11,293 bases of DNA from a virus (lineage: Duplodnaviria > Heunggongvirae > Uroviricota > Caudoviricetes). Below the pieces are notes generated by a model. That model was not told the origin of the DNA and searched no databases. It was given only the letters and a program-made list of their open reading frames with translations. Both the position numbers and the translations under genes were made by a program. Within the stretch, counting starts at the first letter, position 1; each line of letters starts with the position of its first letter. Shown here piece by piece: positions 1-11,293 of this stretch. The DNA lies in IMG/VR virus record IMGVR_UViG_2703718818_000011; one strand, written 5' to 3'.

Positions 1-653
1 GTGTTGGTGCGCACCGGCACTATTTGCGGTCCCGCTAATACTATGGGTATGCGCCCCGGTGTTATTCGTGGATTTGGTTCCGTAATCAAACGACGATGTG
101 GTTTTCGTCCCCAAATCCGTACTGGATGCGCTGGCGCTGTGGGTGTGCGATTTAATGCCGTCCTGTTCCTGAGACAATACGGCCCGACCACTGGCAGGTT
201 TGCCCTTAATCGTCCAGCCACGCATATCAGGGATCACGCCTGACGGATAAGCGGCTGCAAGTTTCGGGTAAGCAGATTTGTCAAAAGTCTGCCCCTGCAT
301 CAGGGCATAACCAGACGGAACGGTATCTGATGGCCACGGGATTGGTGCGCCGACTGGGTAGCTTTCTGGTGGAAGATTTTTCGAGGTATAAACTTCTGCC
401 CAGCCTTCCTCAAAACCATAACCGTCTCTTGAAGAACGGTAGAACAGACCACCATTTCTGTAATGCGCCTTCATCTGCAGGGTCCGGCAACTTCCGACTC
501 CGGTATAGAAGTTAACCAGAATATAGCTGTCGCCAGAGCGGGTGACATTGTAAGCGCCTGATTCGGCATTCCAGGGAACGCCACCATCCGCATCGGCATA
601 TGTATCCGTTGCCCTTCTGGCAAAAGCAGCCACATGCGCGGCGGTTAAAGTAA

Positions 654-849
654 TATCTTTGGAACCATCAAATGGAACACCGGATATTTTTCTTGCAGTC
701 TGGAGTTTTGTAGCAGTTGCAGCATTACCAGTGGTGTTCTGATTACCCGTAGTGTTTACACCTGGAAGGTTAATATTTGCAGAACCGTCGAAAACAACTC
801 CACCGATAGATCTTGCCGTCTGCAATTTCGTGGCTGTACTTGCATTACC
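654..849 (-). repeat. Imperfect tandem duplication inside stf, two ~75-bp copies about 118 bp apart, encoding a repeated ~25-aa fibre motif (..[21 protein letters not shown])
   Basis: Copy at ~654-729 (…ttttgtagcagttgcagcattacc) and copy at ~772-849 (…tttcgtggctgtacttgcattacc) are visibly similar on the plus strand; both translate on the minus strand to near-identical peptide motifs. Confidence 0.55.
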
Positions 850-1539
850 ATTCAATGAACCAGTTAATCCACCTGTAACAGACAACGGACCTGAAACTGT
901 TCCTCCGGTTGTTGGCAGTGCTCCAATATCTGATGGTGTAGGTTTCTGATGTGAGCTATACATCGTATAAACAACACCATAGGTAACGCTGGAAGGCTTA
1001 CTCGCTGAATATGTTGGCGAGGTATAAACAGAAACTGACGCATTTGCAGTACAATCCCAATGGATATTTACACTCGTCGCATAATTGCCAATCTCAACGT
1101 AAATATCATATGTATCGCCGGATGTGTTGATCCAGGCGAAATTCGTTAATCCGACGGCTGTACGCTTCCACAAAGCCCCGGTAATTCCTTTGGGGTTTCC
1201 ATTGCCTGCTCGTAGAACCAGTTCTGAAATGCCTGCCTGATGTGGGGAACCGACGTTGTAACCAGCGCCACCAATCAATGCGATGTAAACGATGGAACTC
1301 GCTTGTGGCATGGTAACCGTAGCCAGTTTGAACCACCCAGCCCCGCCAGAGAAAGACATCGTTACTGAATTTAAAGTACCAATATCTTTCGGCGTTAATG
1401 TTATATCCGCAGTCAGTGCTTTTCCGTTAACTTTTCGGTTAGATGGCACCCTGCTATTCGCATTGTCATTGGCTGCTTTAACTGCTTTTGGCGTTGCGGC
1501 CAGCGATTCACTGGTGCTATCAACAGCACTGCTAAGTTT

Positions 1540-2480
1540 CACAACACCTTTAGTTGTAAGGCTTGCGTCTTCCATCGCAACTGCACCGGCAATCTCTTCA
1601 GCACGATCAGCAGCAGCTTCCGCACGGGTCGCAGCGGATTCAGCAGTAGTTTTGCTCTGAGATGCCGCCGTCGCACTGCCAGCTGCCTCTGTCGCCTTCG
1701 TGGATGCTGTCGTGGCGCTGCCTTTCGCTGCTGATGCCTGTCTGCTCGCCTCATCTTTTGAAGCAGACGCAGATGATGCCGATGACGCCGCCGAACTGGC
1801 GGACGATGCAGCTGCCATTTTTGAGGATTCTGCACTGGTTTCCGAGGCTTTCGCGTTCGTTTCGGATGTCTTCGCTGCGGATGCAGACCTCGCTGCTGCG
1901 CTGGCCTGTTCAGCGGCTTCGCCAGCCTTCGTTGTGGCTGTTGAAGCAGACGATGCGGCGCTTTCTGCCGATTTTCCGGCGGCGGTGGCACTGGCTGAGG
2001 CCTGCCCGGCACTTGTTGACGCGGCACTGGCAGACGACGCAGCCGCTGTTTTTGAGCCTGCCGCAGCCGAGGCGCTCTGTCCCGCTGCCGTTTCAGAAGA
2101 CCTGGCGTTTGTCTCAGACGTCTTTGCCGCCTTCGCGGAATTGCCTGCCGCCGTTGCCGAGGAAGCGGCACTACTGGCGCTTGATGATGCGTTCGTTTCT
2201 GATGATTTCGCTGCCTCTTTTGAGGCCGCCGCATCCCGGGCTGAGGTGGCTGCTTCTGACGCCTTCGTGGTCGCGGCGGATGCAGAAGTGGCTGCTGATT
2301 GTTGTGACGCTGCCGCATTCGTTTCTGACGTTTTCGCCGCACCGGCACTGGTAGCTGCCGCGCTTTTTGAGGACTCTGCAGCAGCAGCACTTTTTGCTGC
2401 TTCACGGGCCTTTGTCGATGCCGTTCCTGCGCTGGAAGACGCTGACTGAGCCGACGACGCGGCCTGTCCGGCTGACGTGC
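1540..2480 (-). repeat. Low-complexity Ala/Ser/Thr-rich repeat region of the tail fibre shaft, with a 9-aa motif AAK(T/S)SETNA recurring four times
   Basis: The 26-nt units gcgttcgtttcggatgtcttcgctgc (~1853), gcgtttgtctcagacgtctttgccgc (~2105), gcgttcgtttctgatgatttcgctgc (~2189) and gcattcgtttctgacgttttcgccgc (~2315) are all reverse complements of AAK(T/S)SETNA codons. This strong compositional bias produces long spurious ORFs in several frames. Confidence 0.6.
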
Positions 2481-3372
2481 TGGCGGCACGTGCTGAGCCT
2501 GCAGCATCGGTTATTACCACTTCCCGGATCGCTATACGCTATTCCGTTAAAGATAATGGGCGGAATAATGATTTGACGGTCAAAGTTATGATCATCGCTG
2601 ATGGTGACTGTAACCGTCCCGTTTGGTGTTTCCGTATTACCCCACGTACCAGCCTGTTTCGGGAATGATTTGGATACAGCTTTAACGAAGTCACCTCTGA
2701 CCTGAGTCGCCTCCAGCATGCCCTTAATCGTACAGTTTTCATTTACCGTGACATTGTTGAGCGTCCCGGCGTTCGCATTCACACTGCCACTGATATCCGC
2801 ATTTTTAGCGGTCAGCTTTCCGTCCGGTGTCAGGGAAAATGCCGGTGGATTTCCACCGCTGGTAATGGTGGGGGCCGTCAGGCGTTTCAGGAACACGTCG
2901 TTCATGAATATCTGATCGCCCTGACCAACAAACATCGGTTTTGTGTTGCCATTCGCAGGATTAACCATCGCAATCCTGTCCGCCGCCAGCAGCACCTGAC
3001 TCTGCATGCCGTCAGGGGTGTTCTCAATATCCACGATGGCCTCTTTTTCCGGTACATGCTGCACGGCGGTGATGGCATACGTGCCGTCGTCGTTCTCACG
3101 GATACTCACGCAGCGGAACAGGCGCTGGCGCAACGTCGGCAGCTTCAGCCCCCATACGCTGTATTCAGCAACGCCGTCAGGAACACGGCTCACTTTCACC
3201 TTCACGCCGTCGGTGACGGACTGAACCTCCACGCTGACCGGACTCCCCTGCCCGTCAACCAGGCTTATCAGCGTGGTGCCGGAAGATGGCAGCGTGATTT
3301 CACGGTCGAGCGTCAGCGTCCGGGTCTGGCTGTTTACCGCCAGCACGCGCCCGCCGGTGCGGATACCCAAGC
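2402..3372 (-). pseudogene. J: Internal/C-proximal fragment of host-specificity (central tail fibre) protein J, with no native start and reading out of frame into stf
   Basis: The ORF translation [113 protein letters not shown] ... [63 protein letters not shown] is near-identical to two blocks of the second half of lambda J as remembered. The 'start' at 3370 is a TTG inside the J frame; the ORF ends ...[15 protein letters not shown]...KGP in the wrong frame of the stf Ala-rich region. Confidence 0.8.
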
Positions 3373-3588
3373 TGGAGTGGCGAACGTTTTACCCTTGCTG
3401 ATGAGGTATTCACTGATTTCGCTGTACCACATGTGGCTGAGTGCATTCTGGGAAAGACTGCGTCTCTCGCGCCACGGTTTAAGCACCATGCGAAAGCATT
3501 TGCCGTCCTCCAGATAAGGCTGGATCTGCCGACCGATAGCGGTGAAGTTACCGCGATGCAATTTGATACCATCTTGTGGGAGGTTCAC
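3363..3588 (-). pseudogene. ninB: N-terminal fragment (~75 codons) of a NinB/YbcN-family protein, truncated at a deletion junction with J'
   Basis: Translation [75 protein letters not shown] carries the RSL-x-QN motif remembered from lambda NinB (..ERNRSLDQNRKLWACLGDVS..). The start is GTG at 3588. After ..TPAWV the frame reads a few junk codons (SAPAGACWR) and stops, while J homology begins in another frame at the same position. Confidence 0.5.
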
Positions 3589-3782
3589 GCTTCACCTCCG
3601 CAGAGATCAAACGCTGGATGCAAAATATCGCAGGTGCATTTCTGCATCTGTGAATGGAGAAGAGAGGTTGGATTGTATGTGCGCATAAACGTCCCCGTTT
3701 AGCGCAGAAGTCACCGGAGTTGTTCAGGCCCCAATGGCATGATTATGGCTGGTTGATTATTGGAAATCAAATGTGCTGAAAA

Positions 3783-4292
3783 TTAGTCTGCCAAGTCTTC
3801 CTCAGTCGCAACTGGGTAATTCCAAATATCAAAAAAAGCTATAGCCTCCTGCCATTTGCTCCATAAGTTATCAAGTACTTGTGTAGGTTCCGTACTTTTA
3901 AAAACAGAATCAGCCGCATCACCGTTATGAACTTCCTCGTACAGTTCCATTATTAGCAGATTAACAAAGTACTGTTTCAACATTAATGCCTGATTACCTT
4001 CTTTCTGCTGGCTATCCTGCTTGATGATCTCCATCGCCCGTACTAGGCACCTGATGATATCCGCTGCATCATTAACGCTCCATTCAGATCCGCGCTTATC
4101 TTTAGCTGATGAATTGGCTCTCTCAGCGCAAGCCTTTAAAGACTCATAAAGGTAAACTCTATTTTGTAGCTGCAGCGCTTTTTTTGACGTGTACCAACTT
4201 GCAAGCGCCGACCCCGCTGCGGCTAATGTGCCAAACGCAGAAATACCTGCTGCTATTGCACTTAAGTCGGCACTGTCAAAGTTCCACATCAT
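3783..4292 (-). CDS. Hypothetical protein, 169 aa, with a predicted single N-terminal transmembrane helix followed by a soluble, charged, helical-looking domain; function unknown
   Basis: Complete ORF with ATG start and an AAGGTG Shine-Dalgarno about 7 nt upstream. Residues ~10-33 (LSAIAAGISAFGTLAAAGSALASWY) are hydrophobic. The gene is AT-rich relative to the phage backbone, has its own upstream region after a terminator, and does not match any protein I recognise. Confidence 0.55.
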   Translation of the reverse strand: MMWNFDSADLSAIAAGISAFGTLAAAGSALASWYTSKKALQLQNRVYLYESLKACAERANSSAKDKRGSEWSVNDAADIIRCLVRAMEIIKQDSQQKEGNQALMLKQYFVNLLIMELYEEVHNGDAADSVFKSTEPTQVLDNLWSKWQEAIAFFDIWNYPVATEEDLAD

Positions 4293-4321
4293 CGTTACAC
4301 CTTATATAAATACCCCTCAGT

Positions 4322-4350
4322 AATATCCAATAAGGTATGTGCACAATCAA
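4322..4350 (-). promoter_or_regulatory. Candidate sigma70-type promoter for the 169-aa gene (minus-strand -35 TTGATT, 17-nt spacer, -10 GATATT)
   Basis: Minus-strand sequence reads TTGATTgtgcacataccttattgGATATTactgaggggtatttatatAAGGTGtaacgATG. Hexamer match only; not validated. Confidence 0.25.
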
Positions 4351-4468
4351 TATAATTTTATCCGTATCGGCACATAGCGATTTGAACGCTACTGGTAATG
4401 GTATATTTTAGATTATATCGTCCAGTTTACAGCACCCGTATTTTATGAAATGGACTCGCATATTACCC

Positions 4469-4507
4469 AAAAAATGCCAGCACTTCCGTCATCGTAGAAT
4501 GCTGGCA
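4469..4507 (-). terminator. Rho-independent terminator on the minus strand downstream of the 99-aa ORF (end of the ybcK-side transcript)
   Basis: Inverted repeat tgccagca (4475-4482) / tgctggca (4500-4507) with a 17-nt loop, followed on the minus strand by a run of six T (plus-strand A-run 4469-4474). Confidence 0.5.
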
Positions 4508-4550
4508 GTATTTCTAACTAGTGACTTTATTGGAACAGATTCTGACGGAA

Positions 4551-4850
4551 TTATGGTAACACTCGACTCCACTTATCATCCAGCCACGGCTGGAATTTTA
4601 CATGTGCCGTTTCTCTGGCGAGGATTGCTCGCGCTCTGTTGAGTATCTGGGGATATTCTTGCTCGATAGAAGTAAAGCGGCCGGCTTCGCGGTGCTCCGC
4701 AACCTGAAGTAGTGGAGTAACGTTCTGGCAGGCAGTTAACATCACATCACCTGCTCGCCATAACCAAGCACGTGCACAAAGTTTGTTATCAGTGAATTGT
4801 TTTGTGATTGGGTATTGTTGAACTGCTAGAACGAGAACGCCAGCATCCAT
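4551..4850 (-). CDS. Hypothetical protein, 99 aa, unknown function; possibly co-transcribed with ybcK
   Basis: Complete ATG-initiated ORF 111 bp downstream of ybcK on the same strand, followed by the terminator at 4469-4507. GC content is closer to the host/phage backbone than to ybcK. No recognisable motif and only a weak ribosome-binding site, so it may be a gene fragment. Confidence 0.4.
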   Translation of the reverse strand: MDAGVLVLAVQQYPITKQFTDNKLCARAWLWRAGDVMLTACQNVTPLLQVAEHREAGRFTSIEQEYPQILNRARAILARETAHVKFQPWLDDKWSRVLP

Positions 4851-4961
4851 TGGCAGTCCCTATAGTAAAACCATAGCTCAGGACGCTTCGTTCAGGATAG
4901 ATAATTTTATTGTACTTACCTAACTTTCTTACTATAGCACGGTTGAAAAAGTGATTATTAC

Positions 4962-6488
4962 TCAAAAATAAACCTCACCATCAACCATATATTTGAGAGT
5001 ACTTATCGCCTGCTGGGCGGATATTGTTTTCATTAAAGGATAGTGTTTAAAAACAATGCCATTCATAAAATAGATATCACAGGTTTTATTATCTGTATTG
5101 ATTATGATTTTTTCGAATGTTTTATAGGCAAGTGTACGACATAGCTCTCGCCCATTTTTACTGGTTAAGTCAATAGCATGAAAATCACCAAGTGAACTCA
5201 CCGCTTTACTCTTCAAAGTTTTTAATGATACAGAAGCCCTTCGTAATTCCTTATCTAATACTCTGATTTTTTCTGCTATAGCGGTAACTTCAGGCGCAAC
5301 AGATAATGCAGCAATTAAATTATTAATTTTCATCTGGAGCTCAATAATTTTCAACTCTAAAGTTTCATTAGCATCTTTCTTGTTTTCAACTGGTTGGATT
5401 TTACTACAATTAAAAAGCAACTCATTAATGATATTATAATCAACCAAATCTCTCTTTATTGATGGCCTGTCACATCGATGCAGTCTTCTCATCGGACAAA
5501 CATAATAGCCATGCAAACTTCCAGATACCGCATGAACAATCATGGTATTACCACAAGCCTCGCACTTCATAACTGTTCGAAGTAGATTTATCAACATAGG
5601 ATTTTTGCTACTATTGCTAATACCAAAAGGTGCCAACCGAATTTCCTGCACAGCGTAAAACAAATCATCTGATATGACTCTGGGATAATAGCCAGCGATT
5701 TCACTTATTCCTTTACCTCTTGCACGATATGAAGGTACGCATATACCTATCAGAGCTTTATTCGCTAATAATTTTTCAATTACAGAAGGTCCCCATGCAC
5801 TTTCTTTTCCTGAGAAATTCTTTACAGCATGATCATTTAAATACTTGGCTATTGCATTCAATGAGCGCCTTTCCATCCTGAGTTTAAAAATTAGCTCAAT
5901 AGTTTTCACCCTGTCGGGGTCTGGAACAAAAGCCGTTCTTTTGTCATCCAATGAGAGCCATCTCGGACAAGACGCCGTCATAATCGTGCCTGACTCCAGT
6001 GCATCCTGCCGTTTTTTCTTCCATGATAATTTAACCCGACTTGACTTTATCTCGCTTTCTTCATTTGCCCTTTGTGCTATAAGTATGGCTTTTATTAATG
6101 AATATGGCTCATTCAATGAGTCAATATTATAGACTGTATTATCGCAAAGAGTTATAACATCAATACCGTGATTCAAAATCAATTTCAGACGCTCAATCGC
6201 CTCACCGACTTTTTCTCTTGAAAGTCTGTCCAGACTTTCAACTAACAATGTAGTCCCTGGCAATATATAACCATGTTCTATAGCATCTAAAAATTCCGAA
6301 AAAGCTCCTGATTGTGCATGCTTTCCATTGAATGCGCTTAACCCCAAATCTTCATACGTTACGGTATCAAGGTAATAATCACTATTTACCTTTAGCCATT
6401 CAGTAATAAGCCTTCTCTGGCGGTTTAATGAATCACCAGACATCTGACTTGGTGATGAAAATCGCATATATGCTATGGCTTTTTTCAT
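4962..6488 (-). CDS. ybcK: Large serine recombinase (resolvase/invertase-type catalytic domain, recombinase domain, Cys-rich zinc-ribbon-like segment), YbcK-like
   Basis: 508-aa ORF. The N-terminus AIAYMRFSSPSQ carries the serine-recombinase catalytic serine motif, with ..LVESLDRLSR.. following. A Cys cluster (CEACGNTMIVH...YYVCPMRRLHRCD) lies in the C-terminal half. Length and position next to emrE match K-12 DLP12 YbcK as remembered. The gene is strongly AT-rich, with an AT-rich 255-bp upstream region. Confidence 0.85.
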   Translation of the reverse strand: MKKAIAYMRFSSPSQMSGDSLNRQRRLITEWLKVNSDYYLDTVTYEDLGLSAFNGKHAQSGAFSEFLDAIEHGYILPGTTLLVESLDRLSREKVGEAIERLKLILNHGIDVITLCDNTVYNIDSLNEPYSLIKAILIAQRANEESEIKSSRVKLSWKKKRQDALESGTIMTASCPRWLSLDDKRTAFVPDPDRVKTIELIFKLRMERRSLNAIAKYLNDHAVKNFSGKESAWGPSVIEKLLANKALIGICVPSYRARGKGISEIAGYYPRVISDDLFYAVQEIRLAPFGISNSSKNPMLINLLRTVMKCEACGNTMIVHAVSGSLHGYYVCPMRRLHRCDRPSIKRDLVDYNIINELLFNCSKIQPVENKKDANETLELKIIELQMKINNLIAALSVAPEVTAIAEKIRVLDKELRRASVSLKTLKSKAVSSLGDFHAIDLTSKNGRELCRTLAYKTFEKIIINTDNKTCDIYFMNGIVFKHYPLMKTISAQQAISTLKYMVDGEVYF

Positions 6489-6743
6489 GGTGACACCTGC
6501 TAAAGTATGCTTTTATAAACCTTAGTGGTGAGATATGATTTTTGTTTAATTTTTATTTAAAAAGACAATTAAGGTCACATTATCTTGAATATACAACAAT
6601 AATCGTATTGCAATTTTCTTACACCATAATCTTGAAAGCACAAAAGAATGAATAAAAACTAAAGACATTAACAAAAAGCATAAAACGAGGCCCATATAAA
6701 TATACGAGCCTCCATATTTTAGTCGTTTAAAAACAAATTATTT

Positions 6744-7076
6744 TTAATGTGGTGTGCTTCGTGACAATAAATTAATAACCAACACACCGGCACAAATCAA
6801 CATCATGCCTATAATGGCTGGCAGGTCCAACCGTTGGCCGAAAAATCCCCATGATAGTAAGCTAATCAGGACAATACCGACTCCTGACCAGATAGCATAA
6901 GCAATCCCTGTAGGAATATAAGCCAGCGTCTGAGCTAATAACCAGAATGATGCACAATAACAAATAATTGTACCAACAGATGGCCATAACCGTGTAAAAC
7001 CTTCTGAAAACTTCATTAAGGTTGTACCAATGACCTCTGCAAGTATTGCACCACCAAGATAAATATAAGGATTCAT
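6744..7076 (-). CDS. emrE: Small multidrug resistance (SMR) family efflux transporter EmrE, 110 aa
   Basis: Translation MNPYIYLGGAILAEVIGTTLMKFSEGFTRLWPSVGTIICYCASFWLLAQTLAYIPTGIAYAIWSGVGIVLISLLSWGFFGQRLDLPAIIGMMLICAGVLVINLLSRSTPH matches E. coli EmrE essentially residue for residue as remembered. The true start is the ATG at 7076 with an AGGAAAG ribosome-binding site; the 128-aa track ORF starts at an upstream in-frame ATG. Confidence 0.95.
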   Translation of the reverse strand: MNPYIYLGGAILAEVIGTTLMKFSEGFTRLWPSVGTIICYCASFWLLAQTLAYIPTGIAYAIWSGVGIVLISLLSWGFFGQRLDLPAIIGMMLICAGVLVINLLSRSTPH

Positions 7077-7091
7077 AGCATATTCTTTCCT

Positions 7092-7126
7092 GTTCAAACT
7101 GGAGAGAATTGTACTACAGTTTGAAC
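7092..7126. promoter_or_regulatory. Perfect 10-bp inverted repeat (gttcaaactg / cagtttgaac, 15-nt spacer) between ren and emrE, directly upstream of the emrE ribosome-binding site
   Basis: Positions 7092-7101 and 7117-7126 are exact reverse complements. No T-run follows on the minus strand, so it is more likely an operator, RNA structure or module-boundary hairpin than a canonical terminator. Confidence 0.5.
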
Positions 7127-7143
7127 TCAACTCACCTGTTTCA

Positions 7144-7446
7144 TCATTGTGTACCCATTGATGTTCTTTTATATACCCTCAATACCCGTTTCATCGCGGC
7201 ACTCTGGCGACACTCCTTAAAAATCAAATTCGTGCTCACCTTTCCTTCCCATTCTTCTCTGGTAGCGAACCGATAATACACCGTTCGCCAGACCTTACCA
7301 TCAACGACTAGGATTCCTGCCCGCGCCATTTTAGCCGCAGCCTGATTTATGCTGGTTACCGTTGCGCCTGTTACCGCGGCAACGTCCTGCGCACAGAATT
7401 TCTTATGAGTCCCCAGGTAATGAATAATTGACTCTTTGCCCGTCAT
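7144..7446 (-). CDS. ren: Ren-like protein (lambda ren homologue), 100 aa
   Basis: Translation MTGKESIIHYLGTHKKFCAQDVAAVTGATVTSINQAAAKMARAGILVVDGKVWRTVYYRFATREEWEGKVSTNLIFKECRQSAAMKRVL... is very similar to lambda Ren as remembered. Its ATG overlaps the stop of P (ATGA), as in lambda. Confidence 0.85.
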   Translation of the reverse strand: MTGKESIIHYLGTHKKFCAQDVAAVTGATVTSINQAAAKMARAGILVVDGKVWRTVYYRFATREEWEGKVSTNLIFKECRQSAAMKRVLRVYKRTSMGTQ

Positions 7447-8144
7447 ACCCTTGCTCCTTTCAGCCCAAACTTAGCTTTGATTTCTGCGATCTTCGCCAGA
7501 GCCTGTGCACGATTTAGAGGTCTACCGCCCATGACAGGAAGTTGTTTTACTGGTTCAGGTATAGCCTCACCACGGTTAATTCGTGCGGTCATACAGGACA
7601 GTTCATCGGCAGCCTTGCGCCGTAATTCCGCGTCAGTCAACGCATTGGCCCGCATGTTCTGATACAGGTTGGTAACCAGCCAGTAGTGCGCGTTTGATTT
7701 CCACGGATAAGACTCTGCATCCGGATACAGCCCGCGCTTCCGGCAATACTCGTAAACCATATCAACCAGCTCGCTGGCGTTTGGCAGCCCGGCGGTAACG
7801 GATGCTTCTTCCCGGCACCAGGCGACAAACTGCCCGGGTGATGGCAGGAATGGTCGATTCTGCCGACGGGCTACGCGCATTCCAGCGTTAACCTGTTCCA
7901 TTGTGGTGATCCCGTTTTCCCGAAAAGCCAGCACCCACTGGCGGCGGATTTCGTTCAGTTCATTCTGGTCACGGTTAGCCAGGCTCGCCGGGAAAGTTGC
8001 CAGTAACTGGCTGAACACACCGTTGATGATCTGCGCTACCTGCTGTACCTGTGGCTTTTCGTCGTACTGTTCCGGCATGTTGTTGGCGATCCGACGCATC
8101 TGCTCACGGTCAAAGTTAACCATCTGTGCGGCGATGTTTTTCAT
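7443..8144 (-). CDS. P: Lambda-type replication protein P (DnaB helicase loader), full length, 233 aa
   Basis: Translation MKNIAAQMVNFDREQMRRIANNMPEQYDEKPQVQQVAQIINGVFSQLLATFPASLANRDQNELNEIRRQWVLAFRENGITTMEQVNAGMRVARRQNRPFLPSPGQFVAWCREEASVTAGLP... is near-identical to lambda P as remembered, with the same length. Confidence 0.9.
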   Translation of the reverse strand: MKNIAAQMVNFDREQMRRIANNMPEQYDEKPQVQQVAQIINGVFSQLLATFPASLANRDQNELNEIRRQWVLAFRENGITTMEQVNAGMRVARRQNRPFLPSPGQFVAWCREEASVTAGLPNASELVDMVYEYCRKRGLYPDAESYPWKSNAHYWLVTNLYQNMRANALTDAELRRKAADELSCMTARINRGEAIPEPVKQLPVMGGRPLNRAQALAKIAEIKAKFGLKGARV

Positions 8145-8395
8145 AGATCCACCCCGTAAATCCAGTCAGTGTTTGTCAGGTCGAGTTTTGGTTTGCCGAC
8201 TGTCACGCCAGCCTGTTGCTTGTTCCGGTTGATTTCGAGCTGGGTCCACTTGTCGCGGAGTTTGGCCGGACTCAGCACGTTACCGGACCAGAAGTTGTCC
8301 TGGCAGGCCCAGCGGAACAGTACACACATGTCGCGGTGGTTACGTCCATCACGTTCACGCATCAGACGGATATCGTTAGGCGCGATCACTTTCGT
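8141..8395 (-). pseudogene. O: C-terminal fragment (~83 codons) of replication initiator O; the N-terminal origin-binding part and the ori iterons are absent
   Basis: Translation ...IAPNDIRLMRERDGRNHRDMCVLFRWACQDNFWSGNVLSPAKLRDKWTQLEINRNKQQAGVTVGKPKLDLTNTDWIYGVDL matches the P-interacting C-terminus of lambda O as remembered, overlapping the P start. The frame is closed by an in-frame TAG just upstream (~8396-8398). Confidence 0.65.
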
Positions 8396-8503
8396 CTACT
8401 CCATTACAAAGCGAGGCTGGGTATTTCCCGGCCTTTCTGTTATCAGAAATCCACTGAAAGCACAGCGGCTGGCTGAGAAGATAAATAACAAACAGGAGGA
8501 TAT

Positions 8504-9568
8504 ATGAGTCAGGTTGGTAATCATTCATTCGAATTTCCGGCATCGCAAGGTGTACAGGGTGGTACTGTTACACTCTTCCTTACCATACCAGGAAGATCGC
8601 TGGCTCGTTTCCTCGCTTCAGATAATTACGGCCATACACTGGAACGCTCTCAGCGAGAAATTAATCCAAATCGAGTACGAAAATTTTTAAATTATCTCAC
8701 TAACGCAGACTCAAGAAATGAGCCTTTTATCATTCCCCCTCTCGTAGGTAACTGTGATTCGAATATAGAATTTGTACCGTTTGGCAACACAAATGTTGGT
8801 ATAGCCAGAATTCCCCTCGACGCCGAAATAAAACTTTTTGATGGTCAACATCGTGCAGCTGGCATTGAGATATTTTGCCGAAGTTCCCCATCAACGCTCA
8901 TGGTTCCCATGATGCTTACAATGAATCTGCCGCTAAAAACCCGGCAGCAGTTCTTTTCGGACATAAATAACAACGTTTCTAAGCCATCAGCGACCATCAA
9001 TATGGCGTATAACGGCCGGGATGATATTGCTCAGGGAATGATATCCTTCCTGACCCAACATACTGTATTTGCCGATATAACCGATTTTGAACACAACGTA
9101 GTGCCATTAAAAAGTAATATGTGGGTGAGTTTCAAGGCACTCACTGATGCAACGTCAAAGTTCGCTAGGAACGGCAATCAACAACTTGAAATGGGATATA
9201 TAGAATCTGTCTGGGAGGCATGGATTACACTAACTCAGATTGACTCAATCCGACATGGTGTACACCACGCTACGTACAAGCGCGATTATATTCAGTTCCA
9301 TGGAGTAATGATTAACGCTTTCGGTTTTGCGGTTCAACAGATGATGGTTAATCATTCCATCGCAGAAATAACTTCTATGATCGAAAAACTATGTGCAACT
9401 ACCAGCTCTGCAGAAAGAGAGGATTTTTTTCTGATGGATAACTGGGCGGGGATCTGCACGAAAGCCAGCCAGGAAAAACTATCTGTTATTGCCAATGTGG
9501 CAGCGCAGAAAGCAGCAGCAAACAGACTGATACAAGCTTTTACCAAAGGAAGTCTGGAAACAACTTAA
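8504..9568 (+). CDS. DGQHR-motif protein (DndB-like family), 354 aa; orphan, with no dnd/dpd partner genes in the window
   Basis: Complete ORF with a strong Shine-Dalgarno (AGGAGG at 8494-8499) and ATG at 8504. The protein contains the diagnostic motif ..EIKLFDGQHRAAGIE.. at about residues 108-121, and its size is in the DndB range. It is AT-rich relative to the flanking P/O' and xis/int, and is followed by a hairpin plus T-run. Confidence 0.75.
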   Translation: MSQVGNHSFEFPASQGVQGGTVTLFLTIPGRSLARFLASDNYGHTLERSQREINPNRVRKFLNYLTNADSRNEPFIIPPLVGNCDSNIEFVPFGNTNVGIARIPLDAEIKLFDGQHRAAGIEIFCRSSPSTLMVPMMLTMNLPLKTRQQFFSDINNNVSKPSATINMAYNGRDDIAQGMISFLTQHTVFADITDFEHNVVPLKSNMWVSFKALTDATSKFARNGNQQLEMGYIESVWEAWITLTQIDSIRHGVHHATYKRDYIQFHGVMINAFGFAVQQMMVNHSIAEITSMIEKLCATTSSAEREDFFLMDNWAGICTKASQEKLSVIANVAAQKAAANRLIQAFTKGSLETT

Positions 9569-10161: not shown

Positions 10162-10398
10162 ATGTCTCGACTAATCACTTTACAGGACTGGGCTAAAGAA
10201 GAATTTGGGGACTTAGCACCAAGTGAGCGAGTTCTGAAAAAATACGCGCAAGGGAAAATGATGGCCCCACCCGCTATAAAAGTTGGTCGCTACTGGATGA
10301 TTGACCGAAATTCCCGTTTTGTAGGAACGCTTGCAGAACCGCAACTCCCAATAAACGCAAACCCAAAACTCCAACGGATAATCGCTGATGGCTGCTAG
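10162..10398 (+). CDS. xis: Excisionase (lambda Xis-like), 78 aa
   Basis: The N-terminus MSRLITLQDWAKEE... and ...APPAIKVGRYWM.. parallel lambda Xis (MYLTLQEWNA... / ..FPPPVKDGREYL..) as remembered. It has a strong ribosome-binding site (AAGAGGAGG) and overlaps the int start by 11 nt, as in lambda. Confidence 0.7.
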   Translation: MSRLITLQDWAKEEFGDLAPSERVLKKYAQGKMMAPPAIKVGRYWMIDRNSRFVGTLAEPQLPINANPKLQRIIADGC

Positions 10399-11293
10399 AC
10401 CCCGATCTCACAAAATCTCTATACCCAATTTATATTGCAAATTAGATAAGCGAACCGGAAAGGTATATTGGCAATACAAACATCCACTATCCGGTCGTTT
10501 TCATAGCTTAGGAACTGATGAGAATGAAGCAAAACAAGTTGCTACTGAAGCAAATACCATTATTGCTGAACAACGTACCAGACAAATATTAAGCGTCAAT
10601 GAGCGTCTGGAAAGAATGAAAGGCAGGCGCTCAGACATTACGGTGACAGAATGGCTTGATAAATATATTTCTATCCAGGAGGACAGGCTGCAACATAATG
10701 AACTAAGACCCAACTCCTATCGGCAAAAAGGCAAACCCATTCGTCTTTTCCGTGAGCATTGTGGAATGCAACACCTCAAGGATATTACCGCACTTGATAT
10801 TGCCGAAATAATTGATGCTGTAAAGGCTGAAGGTCATAACAGGATGGCGCAAGTCGTGAGAATGGTGTTGATCGACGTCTTCAAAGAAGCACAACACGCA
10901 GGACATGTTCCGCCAGGATTTAACCCTGCGCAGGCAACAAAACAACCGCGAAATCGAGTAAACCGCCAAAGATTGTCACTGCTCGAATGGCAGGCAATAT
11001 TTGAAAGCGTAAGCAGACGGCAGCCCTATTTAAAATGCGGCATGCTACTTGCTCTTGTTACTGGACAACGTTTAGGCGATATCTGCAATTTGAAATTCTC
11101 TGATATATGGGACGACATGTTGCACATTACTCAGGAAAAAACCGGTTCAAAACTTGCTATTCCGCTTAACCTGAAATGCGATGCTCTGAATATTACCCTT
11201 CGTGAAGTTATATCTCAGTGCAGGGATGCTGTTGTTAGTAAATATCTGGTCCATTACCGTCACACTACCTCTCAAGCAAACAGAGGAGACTAG
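10388..11293 (+). CDS. int: Lambda-family tyrosine integrase, N-terminal ~300 aa; the frame ends at TAG 11291-11293, before the expected HxxR / H / Y catalytic residues, so it is probably a pseudogene
   Basis: Translation MAARPRSHKISIPNLYCKLDKRTGKVYW... and ...LALVTGQRLGDICNLKFSDI...QEKTGSKLAIPL... aligns by eye to lambda Int (MGRRRSHERRDLPPNLYIRNNGYY..., ..LAVVTGQRVGDLCEMKWSDI..., ..QSKTGVKIAIP..). Lambda Int continues about 55 aa further with FHELRSL...LGHKS...ASQY; here the frame ends ..ANRGD then TAG at the last base of the window. Confidence 0.8.
   Translation: MAARPRSHKISIPNLYCKLDKRTGKVYWQYKHPLSGRFHSLGTDENEAKQVATEANTIIAEQRTRQILSVNERLERMKGRRSDITVTEWLDKYISIQEDRLQHNELRPNSYRQKGKPIRLFREHCGMQHLKDITALDIAEIIDAVKAEGHNRMAQVVRMVLIDVFKEAQHAGHVPPGFNPAQATKQPRNRVNRQRLSLLEWQAIFESVSRRQPYLKCGMLLALVTGQRLGDICNLKFSDIWDDMLHITQEKTGSKLAIPLNLKCDALNITLREVISQCRDAVVSKYLVHYRHTTSQANRGD

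Follow-up and report, generated by a model that had tools for sequence, protein, structure and literature searches.

A predicted integrase-type serine recombinase, YbcK, inside a lambdoid prophage remnant of Escherichia coli

Introduction

Why does a lambdoid prophage with a tyrosine integrase of its own also carry, at an internal position, a gene for a complete large serine recombinase (LSR)? The question is raised by ybcK in an 11,293-nucleotide stretch of tailed-phage DNA (Caudoviricetes; IMG/VR record IMGVR_UViG_2703718818_000011), which was analyzed over its whole length and which we call the window. A first-pass annotation, made from the letters of the window, had described ybcK as a separately acquired gene that might be silenced by H-NS, and had proposed that it could be the integrase of a nested element or a DNA invertase or switch. 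Both ybcK and its association with the efflux-pump gene emrE were known and annotated before; this analysis contributes the correct prophage context, the boundaries of the module, population evidence against autonomy, the strength of selection and a relative whose attachment (att) sites can be derived. On balance we lean toward reading YbcK as a competent integrase-type LSR that has been split from its att sites and travels as silenced cargo in the ren-to-nin slot of lambdoid phages, with its substrate outside the module.

Results

The YbcK protein

Judged from its sequence and its predicted structure, YbcK is an intact integrase-type LSR and appears to be catalytically competent. Pfam assigns it a Resolvase domain (PF00239, residues 4-161, E 1e-18), a Recombinase domain (PF07508, 191-284) and a Zn_ribbon_recom domain (PF13408, 302-357), and its match among phage protein families is PHROG 95 (phrog_95), 'integrase', at E 1e-120. 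The resulting layout runs from a catalytic domain (~1-125) through helix E (128-166), a recombinase domain (178-281) and a zinc ribbon (307-358) to a coiled coil (367-430) and an alpha/beta domain (444-507). Across an alignment of 35 family members that are 27-61% identical to YbcK, residues R9, S11, Q15, D87, R88 and R91 are invariant, the Y7-x-R9-x-S11 set is invariant or nearly so, and the ribbon cysteines C309, C312, C331 and C339 are at least 90% conserved. Residue 14 is serine in the window allele and glycine in the five other YbcK alleles compared. The AlphaFold model (pLDDT 81) shows all LSR domains and a small C-terminal alpha/beta domain, with the coiled coil built from two long helices after the ribbon (367-397 and 402-430). 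Foldseek comparison of this model with the PDB returned full-length serine integrases as top matches (9dxd, E 7e-19), among them Bxb1 (9iu2, E 3e-14) and PhiC31 (9tep, E 9e-14), with at least 528 aligned columns each, while a search of the PDB with YbcK by sequence alone gave no match. Pfam, the family alignment, the model and Foldseek all agree with the first-pass annotation in its description of a 508-aa LSR with an intact catalytic motif and a Cys-rich segment.

Prophage context and module boundaries

The window originates from a lambdoid prophage remnant at icd (the e14 site), of the kind present in strains NCTC9100 and ML35. E. coli ML35 is 100% identical to window positions 1-8048 (blastn), and NCTC9100 and ~15 other genomes match the whole window. 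In NCTC9100, icd lies directly past int, and the remnant extends to an icd pseudogene fragment beyond a McrBC-type system. The remnant is degraded: it has lost Q and the lysis and head genes, and near 3364 a piece of ninB is fused to a piece of the J tail-tip gene. Its own integration module consists of xis and a tyrosine int at the icd junction (Table 1); ybcK is internal and, as had been proposed, is not the prophage integrase. P, ren, emrE and ybcK are co-directional on the minus strand, in the order of the rightward operon of the PR promoter; the end of emrE that had been placed at 7130 corresponds to an upstream TTG start, and the annotated coding sequence spans 6744-7076. The pairing with emrE is known from the K-12 prophage DLP12, and the same ren-emrE-ybcK block is indeed present in both, but the host prophage of the window's ybcK is the icd remnant and differs from DLP12.

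Comparison of the ybcK locus across genomes, with boundaries taken from pairwise blastn breakpoints, defines a module spanning 4923-6735. Homology to the emrE-only locus stops at 6736, and homology to the DLP12-type locus stops at 4923. The emrE gene is itself a separable cassette (~6736-7153) that stands alone beside ybcL-ybcM near fliE/yedK in thousands of genomes, at ~90-96% identity. DLP12-type loci contain a segment of 2083 bp, made up of ybcK, its ylcJ-bearing leader and 307 bp beyond the gene, that the emrE|ybcL arrangement lacks. The insert is also distinct in composition, with a GC content of 0.37 vs ~0.5 in its neighbors (0.33-0.41 across ybcK vs 0.49-0.57 over ren and P) and a 255-bp AT-rich upstream region at 0.28, just as first described. 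This foreign composition, and the 2596 genomes in which emrE is followed by ybcL with no ybcK between them, support the view that the module was separately acquired.

Downstream of ybcK the DNA varies from one carrier to the next. Its 3′ neighbor is ybcL-ybcM in DLP12, a truncated P22AR gene in the window and in GN06489, an alpha/beta hydrolase gene in phage 1W and nothing in strain 107, and the corresponding breakpoints fall, in window positions, at 4953/4923 (DLP12), 4534 (truncated-P22AR type), 4744 (phage 1W) and 4896 (strain 107). On the nin side the aligned arrangements regain homology at about one point, ~90 bp upstream of the small open reading frame (ORF) before ybcN. A related prophage that lacks ren, emrE and ybcK holds a 202-aa P22AR-type gene and a HEPN protein gene in the slot; the 202-aa gene, with a P22AR C-terminal domain, occupies a slot equivalent to that of the truncated P22AR ORF in the window. 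The P-ren-emrE-ylcJ-ybcK block is also found in DLP12-type prophages, in other lambdoid prophages and in isolated phages. The variable DNA around ybcK is ordinary lambdoid mosaicism in a cargo slot.

Prevalence and selection

ybcK is common in E. coli and evolves under strong purifying selection. Of 5426 complete E. coli genomes, 1424 carry it (1529 copies), K-12 and BL21 among them, and 1398 have it at full length; nearly all copies are 95-100% identical. Isolated phages that carry it are 1W (genus Bievrevirus), Lambda_4C10, 4A7 and PhiR34_1, and in the 1W record the ybcK block stands beside an icd-type tyrosine int and xis. Among six ybcK alleles, the ratio of nonsynonymous to synonymous divergence (dN/dS) is 0.058-0.096 in all pairs whose dS reaches 0.05 or more, which shows that selection is preserving the gene and that it is not in decay.

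Leader and regulation

Features of the ybcK leader suggest that the gene is kept quiet. The spacer between emrE and ybcK has a predicted RNA fold with z = -2.9 against shuffles, and a predicted terminator-like hairpin within it lies at the emrE-proximal edge of the ybcK module. The ylcJ-like ORF of the leader has no family match, and an Rfam search gave no match. The promoter motif GTGACC-17-TAAAAA occurs once in the window and in 0 of 200 shuffles. What is known of regulation comes from K-12 literature and is carried to the window by sequence identity. In K-12 the emrE-ybcK spacer holds an RpoD promoter with this motif, identified by genomic SELEX and flagged as H-NS-bound (PMC3946193); the untranslated ybcK leader holds a Rho/NusG-dependent terminator, tybcK, and rho and nusG mutants have more ybcK mRNA (PMC4150792); and there is a polyphosphate-dependent Hfq binding site in ybcK DNA (PMC10954037). 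Because of the H-NS-flagged promoter, the leader terminator and the Hfq binding, ybcK is expected to be largely silent in the lysogen, and the suggestion of H-NS silencing thus finds support in the literature, with Rho/NusG termination and Hfq binding in addition.

Relatives of YbcK

Relatives of YbcK, whose contexts were taken from a genome-wide scan and context look-ups, include integrases with derivable att sites. One of them is an E. coli paralogue, LSR2 (WP_338390158.1, strain LR-21-1), which is 37% identical to YbcK over its full length, including the C-terminal domain, and shares its three Pfam domains. In LR-21-1, LSR2 stands first among the genes of a 12.7-kb phage-like element that has split yecE (locus L107, 19406-32962), and lies 70 bp from attL. 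Comparison with the uninterrupted locus gives the yecE attB, GGGTGATTTTAGCAGCC, with a TGATTTT core common to attL and attR. The reconstructed attP, which includes ATAGTGTATTTAGACCTTGATGATTTTTATTAGACACGTTTAAATACACTAC, shows inverted arms of 12-16 nt (ATAGTGTATTTAGAC … GTTTAAATACACTAC), and its end is ~48 bp upstream of the LSR2 ATG. LSR2 is present in 297 genomes, and yecE is uninterrupted in 5139. Two side observations concern this element: roughly 5% of complete E. coli genomes appear to have an interrupted yecE, and the end of the element far from LSR2 carries an IS3-disrupted small serine recombinase (Resolvase + HTH_7).

Other relatives also lie beside interrupted genes. An LSR2 variant is 36 bp from a truncated mdtG, and relatives from Mixta, Serratia, Leclercia and Rahnella (39% identical to YbcK) have 70-75 bp between them and a T2SSE ATPase gene that is broken off at profile position 243/370; others are directly beside a Band_7 gene truncated at position 97, or adjoin yecN. 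Homologues with 50-59% identity to YbcK are the last prophage gene, after a tail-fiber assembly gene and beside host DNA: the one in Atlantibacter is 540 bp from the ssrA 3′ end, that in Erwinia is followed by two small ORFs and then lepA, that in Ewingella by host genes, and that in Yersinia is 200 bp from an apparent partial tRNA-Leu (seen by eye; no ARAGORN call). Adjacency to tRNA genes was considered as a family trait and rejected, since 0 of 24 scanned genome loci had a tRNA or tmRNA within 10 kb; the homologue near ssrA and the one near the partial tRNA-Leu (by eye) stand as single cases. A tail-fiber invertase role for the tail-end homologues was likewise rejected: no inverted duplicate of the fiber or assembly genes was found.

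LSR genes also recur in the nin region, in at least 4 homologue groups that are 42-60% identical to YbcK, from Atlantibacter RC6 and a related metagenome contig (60%), Pantoea dispersa (42%) and Candidatus Pantoea alvi (49%, antisense to the operon), each with phage genes on both flanks. Two 77%-identical orthologues, one at a tail end and one in a nin region, share only the ORF and a 68-bp 5′ untranslated region, so that what moves from one context to another is the bare ORF, with no flanking sites. A conserved att-like element around these orthologues was sought and rejected, as the common 68-bp region looks like a hairpin that sequesters the Shine-Dalgarno sequence. The module of the nin-located orthologue directly adjoins a second copy, 229 bp long, of the 5′ part of a DUF1367 gene, with the gene cut at codon 60.

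Two loci from this survey are recorded as side observations. In a lambdoid nin region (locus L021, 8673-8918 and 11653-12249), the 229-bp DUF1367 copy (82.5% DNA identity, 58/60 residues) flanks an LSR-KGG-DinI block; the duplicate is a signature of recombination between two phages and not a target duplication, and a SIR2_2 protein is encoded in that nin region. In a Citrobacter koseri contig (locus L019, ~8680-8800), ~17 tandem TTGTTTC heptamers lie between a 49%-identical YbcK homologue and a divergently transcribed gene for a 555-aa protein with a faint Shufflon_N match; the contig also encodes MobA/MobL and TraD, and the heptamer array may be a phase-variable promoter region.

Tests of mobility and alternative roles

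One alternative, unlikely in our view and yet the main rival to the reading of ybcK as cargo, is that the gene is the relic of a nested LSR element, small or once larger, that inserted between emrE and ybcL of a DLP12-like phage and may still excise in DLP12-type prophages. Such an origin would account for the clean presence or absence of a compositionally foreign segment, 2083 bp lying exactly where the 2596 genomes join emrE to ybcL; it would also fit the family members that are element integrases beside one att junction, and the LSR modules that abut truncated phage genes, DUF1367 in another lineage and P22AR in the window. However, all 2596 matches, recovered with a synthetic emrE|ybcL junction query, stop short of ren and belong to one old, diverged remnant at yedK/fliE (90-96% identical, best identity 95.6%), and neither a ren-linked empty site nor a ren-emrE-ybcL arrangement was found in the 5426 genomes. 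The ybcK-emrE junction is present in 1402 genomes and full-length ybcK in 1398, and because these counts match, ybcK is not seen away from emrE; no ybcK at another genomic location was found in the same genomes. All that the two ends of the 2083-bp indel have in common is a 7-bp microhomology, TAAAAAC/TAGAAAC, which fits a microhomology deletion equally well. When joined, they show 10/20 dyad matches, below the shuffle mean, against 13/20 (p = 0.03) for the yecE positive control. The junction is also 247 bp upstream of the ybcK ATG, vs 36-75 bp in proven integrase relatives, and the shared ORF and 68 bp of the 77%-identical orthologues likewise speak against such a relic.

Direct scans of the module gave no better support for att sites. 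A scan for attP-type dyads (12-nt arms, 16-30-nt spacer) over 4700-7200 yielded 1 candidate vs 2.4 expected, and this candidate (4959-5001) spans the ybcK stop codon. The att-like repeats that the first-pass annotation had proposed to look for turned out, in 4400-7300, to be short direct and inverted repeats at chance level, such as the 12-nt direct repeat GTTTAAAAACAA at 5045 and 6725. LSR att sites need only a 2-bp identical crossover and no long repeats, and the negative scans are therefore no proof of inactivity. With no ren-linked empty site, no attP-like dyad and ybcK always accompanied by emrE, the idea that YbcK is the integrase of a nested element found no positive support.

A role other than recombining its own element, either a host benefit through DNA binding or stress or interference with phages or LSR-integrating elements, is less likely again. 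Purifying selection persists even in defective remnants such as the window, and the ren-to-nin slot holds exclusion- or defense-type genes in related phages (ren here, HEPN and SIR2 in loci L002 and L021). Over-expression of ybcK raises sabinene tolerance and deletion lowers it (PMC7181518), and the Keio ybcK mutant loses rifampin-induced persistence (PMC5845583), but these phenotypes come from over-expression or single screens and carry no mechanism. The catalytic Ser, Arg and Asp and the ribbon Cys are invariant or nearly so across the family, which argues for retained recombinase chemistry, and no PADLOC defense model matched YbcK, the ylcJ-like ORF or the neighboring ORFs (only an unrelated DndB-like protein matched). 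Our literature search found no recombination assay of YbcK and agrees that its substrate and function are uncharacterized.

More doubtful is the broader possibility that nin-region LSRs are a recurrent, selected accessory function of lambdoid phages that acts in trans on att sites outside its own module. Such proteins could, for example, integrate, excise or scramble rival LSR elements (yecE, mdtG) or capture cargo into the ren-to-nin slot; if true, this would give serine integrases a previously undescribed role.

We give still less weight to YbcK as a second integrase of the carrier phage, with an attP beside ybcK, that would serve when the phage cannot use its icd or argU site. Conservation of an intact integrase-type protein in viable phages, the presence of LSRs in the nin region of at least 4 separate homologue groups and, judging from gene order, transcription together with the early genes would all be in keeping with this role. 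Integration through such a site would place ybcK or emrE beside host DNA, yet the emrE junction is intact and the five downstream contexts are all phage nin DNA. In each of the five E. coli contexts examined and in phage 1W, ybcK is enclosed by phage DNA and never lies at an element boundary; the nin-located homologues are also between phage genes, and the attP-like dyad such a site calls for was not found by the scan.

Finally, a DNA invertase or switch acting on a nearby segment is very improbable: YbcK is a serine recombinase, some homologues lie just after tail-fiber or assembly genes, where Gin, Cin and Pin sit, and a 16-nt, 94% complementary inverted repeat is present (4946-4961 / 6372-6387), but the protein has a 508-aa LSR architecture and not the ~190-aa Hin/Gin type, inverted repeats are no more frequent than expected, the 16-nt repeat encloses ybcK itself and its stop-codon-proximal arm is not conserved in the DLP12 allele, which differs just past the stop, and no rearranged copy was found among the E. 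coli matches listed, where each full-length match is one co-linear piece.

Other features of the window

Coordinates of the features discussed above are collected in Table 1.

Table 1. Annotated features of the ybcK locus and its prophage, in window positions
Feature	Position	Strand	Evidence and remarks
P22AR-C (antirepressor-like) ORF, N-terminally truncated	4551..4850	-	Pfam P22_AR_C; abuts downstream edge of ybcK module
ybcK module proper	4923..6735	-	Common to window and DLP12-type prophages, missing from emrE|ybcL arrangement
ybcK coding sequence, 508-aa LSR	4962..6488	-	ORF, starts MKKAIAYMRFSSPSQ
emrE-ybcK spacer (ybcK leader), 255 bp, AT-rich	6489..6743	-	GC 0.28 at 6451-6750
ylcJ-like small ORF in leader, 49 codons, hydrophobic	6546..6695	-	RefSeq: ylcJ or hypothetical protein
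Sigma-70 promoter motif GTGACC-17-TAAAAA upstream of ybcK	6550..6578	-	Exact match to K-12 SELEX motif
Terminator-like hairpin, 11-bp stem then U-rich tail (predicted)	6687..6712	-	Pattern scan; recurs in minimum-free-energy fold
emrE coding sequence (SMR efflux pump, 110 aa)	6744..7076	-	Pfam Multi_Drug_Res (PF00893), E 3e-35; RefSeq
ren (Ren-like exclusion protein)	7144..7446	-	PHROG 142, E 2e-41; RefSeq annotation; upstream phage backbone
P (lambda-type replication protein)	7443..8144	-	Pfam Phage_lambda_P, E 8e-62
xis (excisionase)	10162..10398	+	Pfam Exc; next to icd-side int
Lambda-type tyrosine int	10388..11293, cut by window end	+	Pfam Arm-DNA-bind_1 and Phage_integrase

Several observations elsewhere in the window concern the remnant at large. 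A gene at 8504-9568 on the plus strand, in the early-left region of the prophage, encodes a solitary DndB-family DGQHR protein (Pfam DndB, E 4e-46; TIGR03187; PADLOC DndB); the window is without dndCDE and dndFGH, and the protein matches phrog_7901, a phage family of unknown function. In NCTC9100, lambda exonuclease and DUF1317 genes lie between a truncated O and the DGQHR gene, and both are missing from the window (~8389-8504, compared with locus L006, 17372-18186); the NCTC9100 match is ~880 bp longer, which makes the window a deletion variant of the icd remnant. The homology to ML35 ends within P, at 8048, and an e14-type segment follows there in that strain.

The tail-ward part of the window has further irregularities. 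On the minus strand, the ninB-like fragment (~3334-3588) is fused directly to the J tail-tip fragment (2402-3370; Phage_Tail_Tip, Ig_GpJ_C), apparently by a single deletion from nin to the tail genes that took out Q, the lysis genes and the head genes. A 169-aa ORF (3783-4292, minus strand) that separates the truncated P22AR gene from the ninB fragment has phrog_1779 (unknown function, E 1e-102) as its only match, with none in Pfam, NCBIfam or PADLOC. The segment at ~1539-2507 is GC-rich (0.60-0.64), with AT skew down to -0.43 and long ORFs in several frames on both strands, and looks repetitive or of low complexity; a RefSeq plus-strand 'hypothetical protein' (~1712-2449) overlaps the 5′ end of a minus-strand tail protein gene there.

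Discussion

If YbcK is, as we favor, a competent integrase-type LSR carried as silenced cargo, its carriers would be lambdoid (Bievrevirus-like) phages and their remnants, and it would descend from prophage or element integrases of an enterobacterial family that includes the yecE-integrating LSR2. Once expressed, YbcK would be expected to make 2-bp staggered cuts via Ser11 and to exchange strands by subunit rotation, as other LSRs do, on a pair of sites of roughly 40-50 bp. The likely trigger would be N-antiterminated transcription from PR during lytic growth or induction, or the loss of Rho or H-NS silencing, and the enzyme would presumably act in trans, at sites that are not in the module.

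A number of points weigh against this reading of YbcK as cargo split from its sites. Purifying selection this strong (dS up to 0.175) is unexpected for a merely stranded gene and implies that some function is selected, and neither the sabinene phenotype (PMC7181518) nor the rifampin-persister phenotype (PMC5845583) points to recombination. Expression by N antitermination is deduced from gene order only. The dyad symmetry of att sites can be weak, as the score of the yecE control illustrates, and a cryptic att could lie in the leader or past the stop codon; the downstream junction classes are a sample of five.

A complete serine integrase without an att site or an element of its own, preserved by selection in about one in four complete E. 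coli genomes, is an unexplained leftover in the best-studied bacterium. LSR2, with its attP and yecE attB, is a concrete control for finding YbcK sites. If such sites are found, YbcK would add to the orthogonal serine integrases native to E. coli, with uses in genome engineering and in explaining why phages keep spare integrases; failing that, it would be an ordinary silenced prophage gene.

Several known systems can be compared with YbcK. YbcK of K-12 DLP12 (UniProt P77698; RefSeq 'recombinase family protein') is the same gene, with ~96% nucleotide identity and 16 nonsynonymous differences, and has the same emrE-ylcJ-ybcK order, leader and promoter motif; DLP12 is integrated at argU with ybcL-ybcM downstream of ybcK, whereas the window remnant is integrated at icd with the truncated P22AR gene downstream. 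LSR2 and the relatives beside mdtG, the T2SSE ATPase gene and Band_7 are of the same family and length, but LSR2 is the first gene of its element, with an attP dyad and an attB in yecE, while ybcK is phage-internal, 247 bp from the nearest module boundary and without a dyad. Bxb1, PhiC31, the Listeria A118-type LI integrase and TP901-1 share domain order and fold with YbcK (Foldseek E 7e-19 to 1e-13 over ~530-600 columns) at 14-19% identity, and by homology YbcK would use the same chemistry. Characterized serine integrases are the sole integrases of their phages, lie beside attP and have known directionality factors. The Hin/Gin/Pin invertases are small, with a C-terminal helix-turn-helix, unlike the 508-aa YbcK with its recombinase and zinc-ribbon domains. 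Lambdoid morons usually encode host-benefit or exclusion functions. The ybcK insert resembles them in being AT-rich and polymorphic for presence or absence, with its own promoter motif and exchangeable neighbors, and its distinct composition, its absence from related prophages and its promoter motif fit the description of a moron. A complete integrase-type recombinase is an unusual moron, yet the arrangement recurs in at least 4 homologue groups.

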